Source: Cetorhinus maximus (taxonomy: Eukaryota). Taken from it: 64,000 nucleotides of DNA. Where the stretch lies: contig NC_135887.1 in the NCBI RefSeq assembly GCF_964194155.1, positions 121,706,001 through 121,770,000 on the forward strand. The letters are read 5' to 3'. Positions 12,405 to 64,000 of the stretch are shown piece after piece. Under the pieces are notes generated by a model. The model ran no database searches. It saw only the letters and a program-made list of their open reading frames with translations, and was not told the DNA's origin. A program made the position numbers and the translations under genes. The stretch's first letter is position 1. Each line of letters starts with the position of its first letter.

Positions 12405-12692
12405 AAAAATTGTTTATTCACTTTGCATTGCTGGCAAGAGCAGCATTTATTCTCCATCCCTTATTGCCCTTGAGAAGGTGGTGATGAGCCTGAGCCTCGA
12501 GCTGCTGGTATAGATACACCCACAGTGCTGTTAGGGAAGGAGTTCCAAGTGACAGTGAAGGACGGTGATATATTTCCAAGTCAGGATGGTGTGTGACTTG
12601 AAGGGGAGTATGACGTGGTGCTGTTCCCATGCACCTGCTGCTCTTGCCCTTCTAGGCTGAAGAGGTTGCAGGTCTGGGAGGTGCTGTCCAGG
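12405..12692 (-). mobile_element. Same CR1-group family, 3' tail fragment
   Basis: HHHLLKGN and gcccttgagaaggtggtg, as in 14670-14700. Confidence 0.8.
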
Positions 12693-14609: not shown

Positions 14610-15535
14610 TTTTTTTTTTATTCATTCATGAAATCTGGGCATCACTGGCAAGGCCAGCATTTATTGGCCATCCCTAATTGCCCTTGAGAAGGTGGTAGTG
14701 AACCGCCTTCTTGAACCATTGCTGTCCATGTGGTGTAGGTACACCCACAGTGCAGTGAGGAAGGGAGTCCCAGGATTTTGACCCCATGCCATTAAAGGAA
14801 CGGTGACATAGTTCCAAGTTATGATGGTGTGTGACTTGATGAGGAACTTGCAGGTGGTGGTGTTCCCATGTGTCTGCCACCCTTATCCTTCTAGGTGGTA
14901 GAGGTCGCGGGTTTGGAAGATGCTATTGATGGAACATTGATAAGTTGCTGCGGTGCATCTTGTATATGGTACACACAATGCTACCACTTTGTGTCGATGG
15001 TTGAGGGAGGAAGTGAATGTTTAAGGCGGTAGGGAATACTGATCAAGTGGGCTGCTTTGTCCTGGACAGTGTCGAACTTCTTAAGTATTAATTGGGACCG
15101 CACTCATCCAGGCAAATGGGGAGGATTCCATCTGACTTGTGCCTTATTGATGGTGGATTGACTTTTGGAGTCAGGAGGTGAGTTACTTGCCTCGAAATTC
15201 CTAGCCCTGACCTGGCTCGTGTAGCCACATTATTTATAATGCTGGTCAAGTTACGTTTCTGGTCAATGGTGACCCTCCAAAATGTTGATGGTGGGGTTGG
15301 GGGGGGGAGGTGAGTGTTGTTCAGCAAAGGTGATGCTGTTGAATGTCAAGGGGAAATAGATAGTCTCTCTTGTTGGAAATGATCATTGCCTGACAATTGC
15401 TGCATGCAGGCACGAACTGCTTCAGTATCTGATGAGTGCAAACGGCACTGAACACTTCATTAGTGAACATCCCCACTTCTGACTTTATGATGGAGGGAAG
15501 GTCATTGATGAAGCAGCTGAAGATGGTTGGGCTAC
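14610..15535 (-). mobile_element. Same CR1-group family, 3' fragment
   Basis: Collinear with 32772-33730. ORF ends FKKAVHYHLLKGN. Confidence 0.88.
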
Positions 15536-21382: not shown

Positions 21383-22619
21383 ATTTACATAAGGAGATAT
21401 TAGGGCAGGTGGCCAAATGCTTAATTGACCAAAGGAATGGGTTTTAAGGACTGTCTTAAAGGAGGAGGAGAGAGGCAGAGAACCAAATGAGTGTTGACAG
21501 ATAATTCTCTAATGGGGTGGGAGTTTGGGTGGGGTTGGGTATTCTTCTGGATTCGCCTTGTCCTTATACTTGCAACCTTGACTGGGTAACAACTGTCATC
21601 TGAGAAGTCCAGCTAACATTTTGTTTTTTATTCTCTTCCTGGATCAGAGATGATGCCTCCAATTGTAATATTCCTACTGCTGTACTGATTAGATCACTCA
21701 GCATGGACCAGAAATACAACCCAAACCCTCCTTTATAACCTAGTACCACAGTGAGCAGTGTAGTGTTGCTCTAAGCCATTGGGATGGCTCTATTACAAGA
21801 AGTTAAAACCAACATCATAACACACAATCCTAGTCAGAAATGGCATTCAATAGTTAGATAGTCCTAGTACTTGTTTCGCTTTGTGACTTCTGTTTTAGTT
21901 CAGTCTGATTTAACTTTTCTGGGTAGTAGGGGGATCTATTCATTTTTTTTGCTGTTAGTTTTTGATATAAAGAGACTCTTAAGATCAGCCAAGAAATTTT
22001 GAACAATCCCATTTGTACTGGCCGTTTGGAGCAACATTAACAGTGCAGTAATAAATGGTGCTTTGATCTGTGCACATTTGTGTCAATAAGTGAACTCGAG
22101 GTTTGAACGTATAGCTTTGTAAGCCATTCTATGTAAATCTAAAATTGAATTGTCAATGTCTGCCTGCACTGAGTCGAATATGTGGCCTTAAGGAGACAAT
22201 CTTTGAGTGACCCAATATTTCAAGTATTTAAATTTGGAGACTCGCAGATGGTGGCTTGAAATGCAGATTGCAATCCTTCTTTCCAAAAGACTCCCTTGCA
22301 TCAGATAATTGAAGATTTTTCCAGTCTCAGCCAGCCAAGAAACTAGAACGACGTCTGATTGTGAACTGTTGTAATGGGAGGAGCGAGTAGGAGAAGCTGA
22401 TCTTGGCCAACTTATTACACTAGAACCTATACCCACCTGCCTGTTTTATGGTGAAACAAATGTTGCAGATTTGACCAGGTGTCCTGACCAATGGATGGCC
22501 AGGGACCTGTGCGGTGAGGAGGTTAAGAAAAACATCTAGAGAAAAGGAAAGAGAACATTTCTGAAACACTCAGCAGGTCAGGCAATATTTGGACATAGAT
22601 GCTCATGTGCTCCAAATAT

Positions 22620-22795
22620 ATTACCTTTCCTTCATCATTGTTGGGTTGAAATCCTGAAATTCCCTATCTAACGGGAGCACATTCGCCACATGGACTGCAG
22701 TGGTCCATGAAAGGGACTCACCACCAGCTTCTCAAGGGCAACTAGAGGTGGAACAGCTTAGCTAGCAATGCCCATATCCTGAGAATGCATTCATA
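22620..22795 (+). mobile_element. Same CR1-group family, short 3' tail
   Basis: ctcaccaccagcttctcaagggcaactag. Confidence 0.65.
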
Positions 22796-23109: not shown

Positions 23110-23785
23110 CTTTTTTTATTTGTTCATGGGATGTGGGTGTCGCTGGCAAGGCCAGCATTTGTTGCCCATCCATAATTGCTGCCAAAAACGTGGTGGTGAG
23201 CTGCCGCCTTGAACTACTGCAGTCCATCCAGTGTAGATACACTGACAGTTAGGCAGGGAGTCCCAGGATTTTGACCCAGCAACAGTAAAGTAATGGTGAT
23301 GTAGTTCCAAGCCAGGATTGTGTGTGACATGCAGGAGAACTTGCAGGTGGTGGTGTTCCCATGCATCTGCTGCCCCTAGGTGATAGAGGTTGCAAGTTTG
23401 GAAGGTACTGTCAAAGGAGCCTTGGTGAGTTCCTGCAGTGGAACTTGTAGATAGTATATACTGCTGCCACTGTTAATCGGTAGTGCAGCAAGTGAATGTT
23501 AATGGAAGGGGTGCCAATCAAGCGTGTTCCTTTGTCCTGGATGGTGTCAAGCTTCTTGAGTGTTATTGGAGCTGCGCTCATCCAGACAGGTGGAGAATAT
23601 TCCATCACTCTTCTGACTTGTGTTTGGAAGATGGTGGCCAGGCTTTGGGGAGTTAGGAGGTCAGTTACTCACCAAAGAGTTCCCAGACTCTGACCTGCAC
23701 TTGCGGCCACAGTATTTATATGGCTAGTCCAGTTCGGCTTCTGGTCAATGGTTAACCACCCCCCCCCCAGGATGTTGATGGTTAC
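23110..23785 (-). mobile_element. Same CR1-group family, 3' fragment
   Basis: MEYSPPVWMSAAPITLKKLDTIQDK, collinear with 32772-33440. Confidence 0.88.
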
Positions 23786-30042: not shown

Positions 30043-32771
30043 ATGAACTTAATGCCGACCATAGTGGCAGGTGAACACTTACTGCATTTGTCTGAAACCC
30101 CTGTCTCTGCTTTTTAGCCTGGTTAAAGCAGCAGAACGAGAAATATCAAATAAACGTGGTTATGTCAAGCACTCATCCACAAAGAACATGACTAACCTGG
30201 TTGACCAGCATATCATGAACCAGAACACTGAGAAATCTCCTTTCCGCCCGATTGAGCAAGTTGAGTTTGTCTTGGGGACTGATCATTTAGTCATTTTGGA
30301 GCTTTGTACAGATAGCCTTAAAGCCACGGCTTAAATAAGATGACTAGGAGTGTGCCAAAATAAGACTTCAGAGCTCACCTTGGGAGGCCATGTGGTCATG
30401 GGTGAAGAGGACATGGCAGGCAAATGCACAGGCTGTGTGCACCCATCTCAGCACCAAGGCAAGTGACCCAAGGCTTTCGAGATCCAAGGTGATAATGAAA
30501 AAACGTGGTCCAACATGAAAGTTGATGGAAAGATGTGGTCTGCTTGAGATCTCTGCACTCCTCCAATCCTGGCCTCTTGTGCATCCCTTTTTTAAGGGAT
30601 GTGTGTTTGATTGATTGTGTTTTCAGCAGTTTAAGCCCGAAGCTCTGGAATTTTTTCCCTGAACCTCTCCTTGACCTTCTCTCTCCTTTAAGACACTTCT
30701 TAAAACCTTCCTGGGCACCTATCCTAACATCTCTTCCCGTGTCTCGATGTCAAATTTTGTTTAGTAATGCTATTTTGAAGTGCCGAAGGATGTTTTCACT
30801 AAGGCACTATAAATAAAAGTTATTGTTTGTCAAAAGAGAACTAAAATGCATCAGATTGTAATTTCCTACATTACAACAGTGACTACACTTCAAAAGTACG
30901 TAATTGTAAAACACTTAGGGGTGTCCTAAGGTTGTGAGAAGTGCTATATAAAAGCAAGTCTTTTCTCTTTTGTACACAGCCATCATTTTCTGTCTAAATG
31001 ATACATATTAATAGCTTTGAAAAGCCTTTATCTCTGACGGTTTATGAGTTGACTGCTGAGAATAGAATGGTATTGTTTGTGTGTTTAATGACTGTATAAT
31101 TCTAGATCAAGCACTGTGCCAATTAATGGCAGAGGTTTTGTTGCTGGGACTGAGAATTAAGTTGGACCAGATCATTAGTGCCACCTTATCCTTGAGTTAG
31201 ATTTTGGCACAGCTAAACCATCACCTACGGTGACTTTGTCACCTTTGACAACACAGTCTGCTTCAGTAAGCCCAAGGCTCCACCCAACTTTTCCTTACCA
31301 ACCTGTTGCCTCCTAGTGGCACTGGTGGGTGTGGGCAGGACTGCCAGGGTGGGAGGGAAGGATAATTCTTCTCATTCGGACAGAAAGCATGCAGTGTATT
31401 TGAGAAATAGGTACCAGTTATTCCACCTTGGGATGTTTTACCACATTAAAGCTGCAGTATACATTTGTTGGTTGTTATGCTGCTATAAACTCACATACCA
31501 GGGATCTCTTCAGCAGTTTGAAAGTGTGTTGTCATTAACTGCCTATGGAGGGAAATATAAAATCAGTGACATTTCTAAAACAATTAGTAATAATTTGCTT
31601 TATTCACTTTCTAATCTGGTGCCTTATTGAAAATAATTATACAGGAGGACCGGTAGTCAGGAGTGGTGGTGTTAGTGGATGAACATTGGTGTACCATCTT
31701 CCTTGGTGTGCCATGCAAGAGCTGTGCATATTGCTGTGCATAACAGAGATGCTGCCCTCTATTCATTCTGGGGGGAGTGGAGGCGGGAGATGCCTGCTGT
31801 GGATGGCTGGTTGGCGAGGCTCCCTGACAACGATGCGCTCTCAGGAAATAACTGCTTAACTTGTCAACATTCCTCTTTCTGTTATTGTAACCCTTTCAAG
31901 GAAATAGATCAGCTCCTGAGTTAAAGGAGGAATGGTGGTCACTGACTGCATCTCTGTGTACCCTTCACTGATGCTGGTACATCCTACTTAAACTTAACTC
32001 ACGTTATTTGACAACCAGCACTAGATTTGCACTTTCTTCTGGGCCGCTTAATTAAAGTTAGTGGATAACTCAGCATTTTTTTAATGCAAAAAGAATGATG
32101 GATCTATTAGGAGTGGATGTGATCAGCCCAAATCACAAAAGAGTAATTTGAAGGCTTATATTTGTAATGCCGAGTAACCAGGATGTCTGGAAGCAAATTA
32201 GCATCATCCAAAACAATTTCGATAAAGCTCATTACTTTTAAAATTGAATTTGTTTCAGCTCTGCAGCCGACTGCTGCTTGTGTGAGAACGCAGCACCACA
32301 AGGGAGACGCAGATCAACAGTTTCCTGCTTTAATCTGAGCTGAGGGGGGAGGTGAACTGAGTTGGGAAGGGGAAATGTGCTTGGATAAGATGGTGGGGGG
32401 CAGGCACTGAACTTGGTGGGGGCCAGTGAGCTAGGAGCGAGGGACACTAAGCCGGTGGGGGAGCACTGAGCCATGTGGGGGTGGTGGGGGTCACTGAGCT
32501 GGGGAGCACTGCAAACACTGAGCTGGTTCAGATGCTTCTTCCTAAAGGAAAGGATTGAAAGTTGAAGAATGAGTCATTCTGGGCTGGCTCTGCACATATC
32601 CTGACCACCACTGCCAGAGGTTGATGAAACATTTAGTTTCACCAAGCTGAAGAAAAGCCCCAACGGCCCCTAAAGACCTGAAAATAAGAATATGCCAGAA
32701 AGGAGTAAAAATTAGTTTGCCTCTCCTGGAATCTGATTATTCAAACCACTAGTTGTAATTTAATTTATTTA

Positions 32772-34197
32772 AATTCATTCACGGGGTGTGGGCTTCGCTG
32801 GCTGGGCCAGCATTTATTGCCCGTCCCTAATTGCCCTGGAGAAGGTGGTGGTGAGCTGCCTTCTTGAACGGCTGCAGTCCAGGTGGTGTACGTACACCCA
32901 CAGTGCTGTTAGGGAGGGAGTTCCAGGATTTTGACCCAGCGACAGTGAAGGAACGGTGATATATTTCCAAGTCAGGATGGTGAGTGTCTTGGAGGGGAAC
33001 TTCCGGGTGGTGGTGTTCCCATGTATCTACTACTCTTGTCCTTCTAGATGGTAGTGGTCGTGGGTTTGGAAGGTACTGTCTCAGGAGCCTTGGTGAATTC
33101 CTGCAGTGCATCTTGCAGATGGTCCACACTGCTGCTACTGTGCATCGGAGGTGGAGGGAGTAAATATTTGTGGATGGGGTGCCAATCAAATGGGCTGCTT
33201 TTTCCTGAACAGTGTCAAGCTTCTTGAGTGTTATTGGAGCTGCACTCATCCAGGCAAGTGGGGAGTATTCCATCACACTCCTGACTTGTGCCTTGTAGGT
33301 GGTGGGCAGGCTTTGGGGAGTCAGGAGGTGAGTTACTCGTCGCACGATTTCTAGCATCTGACCTGCTCTTATAGCCGCAGTGTTTATATGGCTCGTACAG
33401 CTCAGCTTCCGCTCAATGGTAACCCCCAGGATGTTGATAGTGGGGGATTCAGTGATGGTAATACCATCGAACATCAAGGGGCGATGGTTGGAGTCTCTCT
33501 TGTCGTAGATGGTCATTGTCTGACACTTGTGTGGTGCGAATGTTACTTGCCGCTTGTCAGCCCAAGCCTGGATATTGTCCAGGTCTTGCTGCATTTGGAC
33601 ATGGACTGCTTCATTATCTGAGTAGTTGCAAATGCTGCCGAACATTGTGCAATCATCAGTGAACACCCCCATTTCTGACCTTATGATGGAAGGAAGGTCA
33701 TTGATGAAGCAGCTGAAGATGGTTGGTCCGAGGACACTACCCTGAGGAACTCCTGCAGTGCTGTCTTGGAGCTGAGATGTCTGACCTCCAACAACCACAC
33801 CCATCTTCCTTTATGCTAGGAATGGCTCCAACCAGTGGAGAGTTTTTCCCCTGATTCCCATTGACTCCAGTTTTGCTCGGGCTCCTTGATGCCACATTCT
33901 GTCAAATGCGGCTTTGATGTCAAGGGCAGTCACTATCACCTCATCTTGGGAGTTCAGCTCTTTTGTCCATGTTTGAATGAAGGCTGTAATGAGGTCAGGA
34001 GCTGAGTGGCCCTGGCAGAACCCAAACTGGGCATCAGTGAGCAGATTATTACTGAGCAAGTGCTGCTTAATAGCACTGTTGATGACCCCTTCCATTACTT
34101 CTATTCCATGGAGAGTAGACTGATGGGGCGGTAATTGGCCAGGTTGGATTTGTCCTGCTTTTTGTGTACAGGACATACCTGAGCAATTTTGTACATT
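32772..34197 (-). mobile_element. CR1-group LINE (family ending HHHLL[KQ]GN*), RT and 3' end, 5'-truncated
   Basis: ORFs 33811-34176 (QFGF, ALDIKAAFDRMWH) and 32827-33804 ([30 protein letters not shown]). Confidence 0.93.
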
Positions 34198-35833: not shown

Positions 35834-36210
35834 GGGGAAATGGTAATGTAGTAGTACTGTCGCCGGACTAGTAATGCAGAGGCCCAAGTTAACCCTCTGG
35901 GGAAATGGATTCAAAATCCATCAAGGCAGCTGGTGGAATTTAAATTCAAATAATAAAGTCTGAAATTGAAAGCTAGTCTCAGCACAAGTGACCACGAAAC
36001 CAATGTTGATTGCCGGAAAACTGATCTGGTTCGCTAATGCCTTTTAGGGAAGGAAATCTGCAGTCCTTACCTGGTCTGGCCTACATGTGACTCCAGATCC
36101 ACAGCAATCTGGTTGACTCTTAACTGCCCTCTGAAATGGCTGAGAAAGCCGCTCCATTCAAGGGCAATTAGGACAACAAATGCTGGCCTTGCAGAAAGAA
36201 TAAAGAAAAA
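35834..36210 (+). mobile_element. tRNA-derived SINE whose head matches 62495-62783 and whose tail matches the CR1-group 3' end
   Basis: The core ttcgctaatgccttttagggaaggaaatctg...ggcctacatgtgactccaga is shared with 62680-62753. The tail caagggcaattagg...aaatgctggccttgc matches the reverse complement of 14645-14690 and 32795-32840. Confidence 0.85.
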
Positions 36211-61810: not shown

Positions 61811-62494
61811 AGTAATTACTCTGGTAATGAATTCAAATCTACACTTGTGTATTTACATTCTGGTATTGGAAACAGCAGTACACCACCAAATCAAGTGCTA
61901 CCTTTATAGTCTAGTGTACTGTGATTAGCTTCAGCATCATTCTGACTTGTGATAGATGTAAAATCAGATCAGAGGCAAATGCTTGTACAGTCAGTGGAGC
62001 GAATACCTTGATCACAGTTAGCACAGCAAACATAGATAAAAGTGGCACATTGGGATAATTCCATAACCCAGTCACGCCAGGGAAGACACCATCAGAAGTC
62101 ACAGGCACTTCTTTCCACTTCTAGAATGGAATGGCATAGAATTATACCAAACAGAAACAGGCAATTTGATCCAAGAGGCCTTTGCTGGCATTTATGTTCC
62201 ATACAAGCCTCCTGGCACATTTTCATTTAACCTTATCAATATATCCTTCTATTACTTTCCCCCTCATGTACTTATCCAGCTTCTTCTTAAATGAACCCAT
62301 GCTATTTGCCTCAACCATTCCGTGTGCTAGTGAGTTCCACATTCCCACACTCTGGCATCGCCAGGAGAAAGGCTGATGTTAGCGACACAGTGGAAAAGAA
62401 AACTTAGAGAAAAAAATCTTCCAGGTTGCCAAGTTGCCTGTTCCCTGCCTGTCAATAAAAGTGAAAACTCCCCACCCCCTTATTCACTCCCTCA

Positions 62495-64000
62495 GGGGAG
62501 GTGATAGTGCAGTGGTATTGTCGCTGGGCTAATAACCCAGAGACCCAGAGTAACACTATGGGGACCCGGGCTCGAATGCCGCCACGGCAGATGGTGGAAT
62601 TTGAATCCAATAAAAATCTGGAATTAAAAGTCTAATGTCGACCATGGGACCAATATTGATTGTTGCAAAAACCCATCTCGTTCACTAATGCCCTTTAGGG
62701 AAGGAAATCTGTTGTTCTTACCTGCCCCGGCCTACATGTGACTCCAGACCCACTTAAATACCCTCTAGCAAGCCACTCAGTTGTAACAAACTGCTACAAA
62801 GTCACAAAAAAGGAATGAAACTGGACGGACCACCCAGCATCGACCTAGGCACCAGAGATGACAACTGAAGTCCTCCTGGAGGATAGGGGCTAGTGCCAAA
62901 ATTGGGAGAGCTGTCTCACAACTAGTCAAGTAACAGCCTGACATAGTCATACTCATGGAAACATACATTACAGATAATGTTCCAGATGCCGCCATCATCA
63001 TCCCTGGGTATGTCCTGTCCCACCAGCAGGATAGGCCCAGCAGAGGTGGTGGCGCAGTTGTATACAGCCAGGAGGAAGTTACCCTGGGACAACATCGACT
63101 CTGGACCCCATGAAGTCTTATAGCATCAGGTCAAACATGGGCCCTCCCTCAGCTGATGAATCCGTGCTCCTCCATGTTGAAACCACTTGGAGGAAGCACT
63201 GAGGGTGGCAAGGGCACAGAATGTACTCTGGATGGGGGACTTCAATGTCCATCACTGAGTGGCTTAGTAGCACCACTATTGACCGAGCTGGCCAAGTCCT
63301 AAACGACAGTGCTGTTAGACTAGGTCTGCGGCAGATGGTGAGGATCTCATCCTCACCAACCTGCCTGCCACAGATGTATCTGCCCATGACAGTATTGGTA
63401 GGAGAGACTACTGCACAGTCGTTGTGGAGATGAAGTCCCGCTTCCATATTGAGGATATCCTCCACGTTGTGTGGCACTACCACCGTGCTAAATGGAATAG
63501 ATTTCAGACCAATCTAACAACTCAAGACTGAGCATCCATGAGGCGCTGTGGGCCATCAGCAGCATCAGAATTGTAGTGGAACACAATCTGTAACCTCATG
63601 GCCCAGCATATCCCCAGTTCTACCATTACCATCAAGCCAGGGGATCAACCCTGGTTCAATGAAGAGTGCAGGAGGGCATGCCAGGAGCAACACCAAGCAT
63701 ACCTAAAAATGAGGCATCATATAACACAGGACTACTTGCATGCCAAACAGCATAAGGAGCAAGTGATAGACAGGGCTGAGTGATCCCACAGCAACGGATC
63801 AGATCTAAGCTCTGCAGTCCTGCCACATCCAGTCGTGAATGGTGGACAAATAAACAACTCACTGGAGGAGGAGGCTCCACAAATATCCCTATCCTCAATG
63901 ATGGAGGAGCCTAGCACATCAGTGCAAAAGATAAGGCTGAAGTATTTGCTACAATCTTCAGCCAGAAGTGCCGAGTGGATGATCCATCTTGGCCTCCTCC
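62495..64000 (+). mobile_element. CR1-group LINE 5' portion: tRNA-like head directly followed by a decayed APE endonuclease; runs off the window
   Basis: A-box-like TAGTGCAGTGG (62505) and B-box-like GGCTCGAATGCC (62569). From about 62885 the sequence reads QPDIVILMETY...PGY...DRPSRGGGAVVY, GDFN (63235) and KPGDQPWFNEECRRA. Confidence 0.85.

Follow-up and report, generated by a model that had tools for sequence, protein, structure and literature searches.

A tRNA-like head and avoidance of T-runs in an elasmobranch Zenon LINE, a candidate for transcription by RNA polymerase III

Positions 62495-64000 of a 64,000-nt stretch of the Cetorhinus maximus genome (GCF_964194155.1, NC_135887.1, positions 121,706,001 to 121,770,000 of the forward strand; hereafter the window) cover, judged from their sequence, the 5' half of an elasmobranch Zenon LINE, in a copy that is dead. 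The family to which this copy belongs opens with a tRNA-like head carrying A and B boxes and continues without an ORF1 into a single endonuclease-reverse transcriptase (RT) frame. Runs of three or more Ts and weak terminators for RNA polymerase III (Pol III) are depleted on its sense strand only. The family is probably an autonomous LINE that is made by Pol III and translated in an unusual way; we infer its transcription by Pol III from sequence composition.

Anatomy of the copy and of its family

A family consensus of 3.28 kb was built from 24 near-full copies among 40 fetched stretches and is 88-93% identical to the copies. It consists, in this order, of the tRNA-like head, a body shared with a SINE, a short linker, a single endonuclease-RT ORF and an A-tail (Table 1). 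The ORF is one 969-codon stop-to-stop frame. No other 5' ORF is present, and the gap of ~110 nt between body and endonuclease leaves no space for an ORF1. Pfam searches of other real copies returned Exo_endo_phos_2 (1.7e-8) and RVT_1 (2e-33). At its 3' terminus the consensus has a stem-loop (folding z -2.3), then AATAAA at q3226, and closes in a brief A-rich tail; 23 copies finish in GAAT followed by a short A-rich run. A further AATAAA lies at q115, within the head.

The copy at 62495 is dead, with 92.4% identity to the consensus, 18 indels and 14 in-frame stops. Its first endonuclease motif, at about 62872-62890, is hit by a 29-nt deletion and by a stop at 62884. The initial annotation had described box-like motifs at 62505 and 62569 and a SINE-like stretch of about 290 bp running into an APE endonuclease frame without an A tail or a target site duplication (TSD). 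Both descriptions hold: q11 and q75 map to the two motifs, and head and SINE-shared body together span 288 nt, up to 62782, followed by the linker and the endonuclease, with neither an A tail nor a TSD found between head and ORF. No convincing TSD was found in 23 copies of the family (best matches of 0-8 nt, at inconsistent places), and the missing TSD is therefore uninformative about the head-endonuclease junction.

Table 1. Parts of the Zenon copy at 62495, in window coordinates; q, position in the 3,280-nt family consensus built in the present analysis.
Feature	Position	Strand	Consensus	Remarks
tRNA-like head	62495..62594	+	q1-100	Sharp 5' end; A box starts 10 nt further in
A box	62505..62515	+	q11-21	CpG-aware consensus TGGCGTAGTGG; decayed here, two mismatches to consensus
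B box	62569..62579	+	q75-85	CpG-aware consensus GGTTCGAATCC; two mismatches to consensus in this copy
Body common to the LINE and the companion ~385-nt SINE	62595..62782	+	q101-303	
LINE-only linker	62783..62871	+	q304-412	29-nt deletion at the 3' end in this copy
Conserved ATG	62815..62817	+	q336	In undeleted copies, not in the frame of the ORF
Decayed single ORF: APE endonuclease and pre-RT region	62872..64000	+	q413-1638	
RT, AATAAA (q3226) and A tail	Outside the window, up to G000:C9:121771624	+		Rest of the copy

Five further 5'-truncated pieces of the family, 75-93% identical to the consensus, lie elsewhere in the window (12430-12688, 14611-15532, 22614-22751, 23111-23782 and 32764-34196). 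On the opposite strand, ~120 nt upstream of the element, a short frame at 62223-62378 (-) looks by eye like the C-terminal end of ORF2 from the host CR1.

The head-endonuclease junction is a family trait

That the junction might characterize a whole family was borne out by a search of the shark's own genome (4.0 Gb) with positions 62450-63150, in which the best 40 of 12,577 first-look candidates were scored. All 39 places other than the query run from the head or body to at least query base 548, beyond the start of the endonuclease; 22 of them begin at query 40-46 (46 being 62495) and none before 40. A second search used the endonuclease alone, which avoids selection for the head (4,055 candidates, 40 scored, 30 loci fetched including the query). 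Among the 29 independent loci so picked, 19 reach the head or body, nine are 5'-truncated at q313-450 and one is rearranged. The nine truncated loci have no junction-adjacent flank in common, and no 5' end with an ORF1 was found behind any of the 29. When loci were picked by their 3' end, two of the 20 fetched (from 40 matches) were full-length and headed. These counts are lower bounds from top-scoring candidates and not a census.

A one-off SINE insertion or template switch at 62495 was rejected because the junction recurs at all 39 other scored places. An ORF1 merely deleted from this copy was likewise rejected: the full consensus, where an ORF1 would have overturned the initial interpretation, contains none, and no alternative 5' end was found in the 29 loci. 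Headed copies cover old and young subfamilies, from 13 of 14 down to 0 of 17 old tail alleles. Head, body, linker, APE-RT ORF and A tail have moved as a single unit through successive subfamilies. An older, differently headed subfamily was also sought; the first query led to the same family again (20 of 40 matches fetched), and the second to an older subfamily in which all 20 fetched copies (of 40) were 5'-truncated.

Several irregularities were seen along the way. The 5' ends appear to cluster at q367-389, just upstream of the endonuclease (L072, L076, L082, L083, L100 and L245), 5 of 29 being true truncations. Deletions are commoner at q200-500, with 7-8.5% gaps versus 1-4% elsewhere, and inverted or rearranged family segments occur in L052, L066, L077, L091 and L100, a pattern that nested insertion or twin priming could leave.

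Identity with Zenon and distribution in elasmobranchs

As matched by eye against the available part of the PMC13343379 supplement, the family is the elasmobranch Zenon catalogued there. Over its first 400 nt, CarCar_Zenon-1 (3,288 nt) equals our consensus nearly base for base by eye, and identity to the elasmobranch Zenon consensuses over this stretch was likewise judged by eye to exceed 84%. The published elements are described in the passages available as having a single APE-RT ORF, no ORF1 and a poly-A tail, in five elasmobranch species, and the same three traits are found here. The Zenon sequence and the lack of ORF1 are thus already known, as far as these passages go.

The initial annotation had started from the premise that LINEs of the CR1 group normally have an ORF1, and had proposed that this one was given up when the head was captured. 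The premise is not supported, as ORF1 is absent throughout Zenon and Rex1 elements according to the same passages, and the proposal is wrong, the absence being a known Zenon-wide trait. The family differs from a canonical vertebrate CR1, whose ORF1 is of the esterase type, in having no ORF1, and the ORF1-bearing host CR1 falls in the other half of the RT tree. In that tree (FastTree, 81 RT regions, no named Zenon protein included) the family stands among unnamed relatives, apart from the host CR1.

The tRNA-like head opens, by eye, all seven published elasmobranch Zenon consensuses (CarCar_, RhiTyp_, ScyCan_ and HypSab_Zenon-1, and SquAca_Zenon-1 to -3; four sharks and one ray) in the part of the supplement available, with recognisable boxes and a variable spacer. 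It is absent, again by eye, from the first 400 nt of three hagfish or coelacanth Zenons, two of which have T4 runs there. Contigs of organisms A and B span the body-endonuclease junction with at least 31 bases per side; a contig of organism C also spans it, with fewer than 31 nt on one side, and none of the pieces listed for organism D bridges it. A Mobula birostris protein showed 79% identity over 39% of a query. The Zenon family is abundant in sharks and rays.

tRNA resemblance of the head

The internal A and B boxes stand just behind the 5' end (q11-21 and q75-85), as in type 2 Pol III promoters, and both are textbook boxes in the CpG-aware family consensus. Formal tests weakly support a tRNA origin of the head. 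ARAGORN found no tRNA in the 64-kb window. For the head of one copy (L050) the Rfam tRNA model was the top match, at 15.5 bits (E 0.64) and therefore below the gathering score of 29; in the alignment to this model the head has ~21 extra nt in the variable region and an A-B spacing longer than that of a standard tRNA. The best match to host tRNAs had p=0.017 in a weak comparison with fragments of only five tRNA types. No Rfam ribozyme or IRES was found in the three loci examined, and no match to tRNA, head or tail in 80 metagenome LINE loci, many of which are without their 5' ends.

Avoidance of T-runs on the sense strand

If the element is read by Pol III, its sense strand should lack T4 terminators, as the initial annotation had anticipated. 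The 3.28-kb consensus contains no T4 run, versus 15 A4 runs, and the avoidance extends to T3 runs, of which there are 5-7, and to non-canonical terminators. The absence of T4 is significant when bases are shuffled (p=0.007) and not significant under a null that keeps dinucleotides (p=0.16) or one that shuffles synonymous codons (p=0.087-0.115). It counts against the Pol III reading that this significance is lost once codon usage or dinucleotides are kept, the strong signal lying in the T3 runs. Within the ORF, three T3 runs were observed versus 11.8 expected under synonymous-codon shuffling (p<=0.001). Non-canonical Pol III terminators, of the types defined in the available part of PMC3141230, were absent from the ORF versus 4.5 expected under synonymous shuffling (p=0.012); T3 runs alone are described there as poor Pol III terminators. 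Under the synonymous-codon null, runs of A, C and G in the ORF are not depleted. Pyrimidine tracts are not depleted either (7 vs 4.9).

Real Zenon copies carry 0.21 T4 per kb (243 segments, 113 kb), and 126 more decayed segments 0.37 and 0.49, versus 3.4-4.3 per kb in CR1-type LINEs of the host (200 segments, 105 kb); A4 rates are similar, and T makes up 21% in Zenon vs 24%. As a control, one host LINE family was rebuilt, a CR1 consensus from 12 of 20 fetched copies with a 312-aa ORF1 and a 987-aa ORF2. This ORF2 shows no depletion, with 41 T3 runs versus 40.4 expected and 9 T4 runs versus 11.5. The TTT odds ratio is 0.14 in Zenon versus a minimum of 0.56 and a median of 1.13 in the 79 of 80 related metagenome LINE loci that were long enough. 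At the protein level, the Phe content of 1.9% is below that of all 100 homologues of at least 850 aa among the 120 matches listed. Read-through by Pol III predicts just this pattern, an element opening with A and B boxes whose avoidance is specific to T and to the sense strand.

The strongest competitor is transcription by Pol II only. The head would then be a promoter for Pol II or a 5' UTR with structure, and T avoidance would stem from slippage of the RT, from signals for RNA decay or from a relic. LINEs are as a rule Pol II transcripts, the family has a poly(A) signal, Pol II would account just as well for its A tail and its 3' AATAAA, T4 by itself is marginal, and one relative (L145) is T4-free without a visible head. 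Set against this are the specificity of the depletion for T and for the sense strand, its absence in host CR1, its extent far beyond the 79 relatives and its reach to the protein level through Phe; pyrimidine tracts, moreover, are not avoided, and the two boxes, intact in the consensus, can be recognised in sharks and in a ray. We regard transcription by Pol II only as unlikely, though by no means negligible.

L145 is the only T4-free relative among the 79 metagenome loci and is 5'-incomplete, with no head seen. Its LINE ORF (L145:54-2789), which lies outside the family clade, has 0 T4 runs versus 5.6 expected (p<=0.005) and a mild depletion of T3; L122 and L168, next to it in the tree, are T4-poor as well, at 1.2 and 1.5 per kb. 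L145 could represent a second lineage of Pol III type, or a chance result as one of 79 loci. The host CR1 control family is young, its copies being 93-97% alike, and has a tandem-repeat 5' UTR (L212, L218, L223 and others).

Selection on the ORF and the start of translation

Coding capacity was assessed with non-CpG variants in 144 aligned segments, a variant counting as shared when present in at least 12% of copies. Shared variants comprised 50 synonymous, 39 non-synonymous and 0 stop changes versus 477, 1669 and 71 among singletons (p=4e-12), and in the endonuclease part alone 8, 10 and 0 versus 129, 421 and 17 (p=0.038). These counts indicate that the Zenon ORF was under purifying selection, consistent with the autonomy suggested by the initial annotation.

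The earliest in-frame AUG is nevertheless codon 285, behind the endonuclease. An apparent in-frame Met within the endonuclease of the plain consensus was rejected as the CpG-decay product of a Thr codon, and from q308 to the first endonuclease motif the consensus contains no in-frame AUG, CUG, GUG or ACG. A selected ORF with no in-frame AUG ahead of its endonuclease points to an unusual start of translation. The AUG at q336 sits behind an A-rich stretch and, in undeleted copies, 98 nt ahead of the Trp codon in the endonuclease's first motif, and is thus out of frame. It was found by eye in six of the seven published elasmobranch Zenon consensuses, with the same spacing in the ray, in the available part of the supplement. 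Read in the ORF frame, the linker gives an N-terminal extension that is Arg-rich like the N-terminus of the relatives P0002 and P0014; mid-frequency variants in the linker lean towards the ORF frame (21/26/4 vs 10/41/0), shared variants being too few to judge by. No IRES-like structured fold stood out (z -0.6 in the body, +0.7 in the linker).

A division of labour between polymerases has also to be weighed, in which Pol III makes the RNA that is copied, while Pol II makes capped transcripts at the same master loci, by host read-through or from a start of its own within the head, and these give the protein. Such a division accounts for T-run avoidance without cap-independent translation, and the AATAAA at q3226, the conserved AUG after the A-rich stretch and the poor translation of Pol III RNAs (as described in parts of PMC5703244) speak for it. 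However, if the protein came in trans, the ORF of the templates being copied should be under relaxed selection, whereas purifying selection and 0 shared stops are observed; the absent in-frame AUG still demands an unusual start, and AATAAA is present at q115 in the head too. We find such a division doubtful and rank it below transcription by Pol II only. That a SINE was fused to a 5'-truncated LINE and moved by an unseen ORF1-bearing master, or that the fusion is specific to this locus, would fit the absence of an in-frame AUG ahead of the endonuclease, the missing head in 9 of 29 endonuclease-selected loci and the restriction to top-scoring candidates, but is very improbable and already largely refuted by the junction at 39 of 39 other places, the lack of an alternative 5' end at 29 loci, the intact and selected consensus ORF, and the Zenons being a clade without ORF1 in which the head opens the consensuses of five species in the published material available.

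A model of Pol III-driven retrotransposition

In its full form, the Pol III reading describes an autonomous coding retrotransposon of Pol III whose 3.3-kb uncapped RNA would be both mRNA and insertion template, and which would have been recoded down to the amino-acid level against terminators, have no in-frame AUG, be older than the split between sharks and rays, and give rise to complete SINEs by one internal deletion. We lean slightly towards this full form. TFIIIC and TFIIIB would bind the internal boxes, so that each full-length insertion would bring its own promoter. Internal terminators may have been avoided because they would remove the 3' end needed by the RT. Pol III would pass the A tail and stop at the first genomic T-run, and the 3' AATAAA may permit polyadenylation. 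Active copies were probably read by Pol III from end to end, and the RNA so made probably served for translation too, which would rely on cap-independent non-AUG initiation or on a -1 shift soon after the conserved AUG in the other frame. In LINEs the APE-RT protein binds a 3' stem-loop and insertion proceeds by target-primed reverse transcription; the Zenon protein would do the same at its own stem-loop.

It argues against the model that an mRNA of 3.3 kb made by Pol III would lack a cap and yield little protein. The available parts of PMC5703244 report that Pol III-made RNAs are poorly translated, and that luciferase can be expressed in cells from Pol III promoters, weakly and with a caution from the authors. 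Polyadenylated Pol III SINE RNAs are described in the accessible part of PMC8466645.

Comparison with known elements

The words "tRNA", "promoter" and "polymerase III" do not occur in the main text of PMC13343379, and its available passages do not discuss the head, the T-run avoidance, the absent in-frame AUG or the companion SINE. A whale-shark preprint (10.1101/443036), in the part available, merely names a "CR1-Zenon like LINE". Among the titles and abstract openings of the papers listed by searches of the open full-text literature, which leaves Repbase, Dfam and subscription journals outside, no description of a Pol III-transcribed autonomous LINE was found.

A precedent for deletion elements derived from Zenon is the Persaeus SIDE of lepidopteran Zenons (PMC6740152, available in part), in which ~3.3-kb Zenons lose their interior and the 5' end joined to the 3' end forms a short element, as may be the case here. 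Persaeus is described there as having neither a Pol III promoter nor homology to tRNA, 5S or 7SL, whereas the tRNA-like head of the companion SINE gives it the look of a full SINE. SINE2 elements, including the shark SacSINE1 (PMC5499810) and HE1 (PMC3747384), both compared here by their descriptions, also combine a tRNA-like A/B-box head with a conserved body and a LINE-derived tail. They are short and non-coding; the element at 62495 is a coding one of 3.1-3.3 kb, and in Zenon the head leads into a 2.9-kb ORF. Unlike SacSINE1 and the DeuSINEs, Zenon has no recognisable Deu domain in its body, as judged by eye with the Deu alignment available from PMC7245038. Another LINE, RTE-1_DAn, is said with its relatives to contain a tRNA-like sequence (PMC5786205); it belongs to the RTE clade, and the available parts of that paper give no position, promoter role or terminator analysis.

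Further partial likenesses come from better-known systems. The RT of R2 and of L1 ORF2 is made by non-AUG or otherwise unconventional initiation and so, as in Zenon, without a standard start, but R2 is co-transcribed by Pol I and L1 is transcribed by Pol II. Cassandra carries 5S sequence, and thus a Pol III promoter inside a retrotransposon, but is a non-coding element of LTR type, unlike Zenon as proposed here. In textbooks, LINEs are made by Pol II and coding, SINEs are made by Pol III and non-coding, and Pol III makes short non-coding RNA. If the Pol III reading is true, a natural multi-kb Pol III mRNA breaks both rules, offers a natural model for the translation of uncapped, AUG-less RNA and provides a one-step path from a LINE to a full SINE. 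It predicts transcription that depends on the boxes and is abolished by a single inserted T-run. Should it fail, a catalogued Zenon with an unremarked head remains.

The companion SINE

A consensus of the companion SINE from 30 loci is ~385 nt long, non-coding and headed by A and B boxes, and consists of the two ends of the LINE with nothing between. It matches q1-303 at 89.8% over 313 columns and q3204-3280 at 89.6% over 77 nt. Copy identity under a stricter mask is 0.90 for the SINE and 0.93-0.94 for the LINE, values that are not directly comparable. The body matched none of the Deu, Meta and UCON3 alignments of the available PMC7245038 supplement by eye.

The SINE tail has alleles of an older LINE subfamily, and its head alleles are similar by eye to SquAca_Zenon-1 in the published material available. 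Together, these alleles suggest that the SINE arose by internal deletion of an older headed LINE. Alternatively, the LINE may have captured its head from a SINE. Among the headed copies in the shark's own genome, head alleles of the SINE type show no correlation with old alleles in the tail (Spearman 0.12, p=0.5, n=34), and capture of a SINE head by the LINE therefore stays a candidate.

A head-and-body copy of the companion SINE type lies in the window at 35848-36130 (+), corresponding to q15-287 at 80%, with a weak tail match. A second SINE-like junction joins the same body to a longer LINE tail from about q3167-3176 (L281:1755-1983 oriented, L283 and a loose end at L050:860), which suggests more than one deletion event. 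Finally, L033:1017-1300 was found to hold an interspersed repeat of ~285 bp with a sharp boundary, represented by 742 candidates that are ~81% alike.
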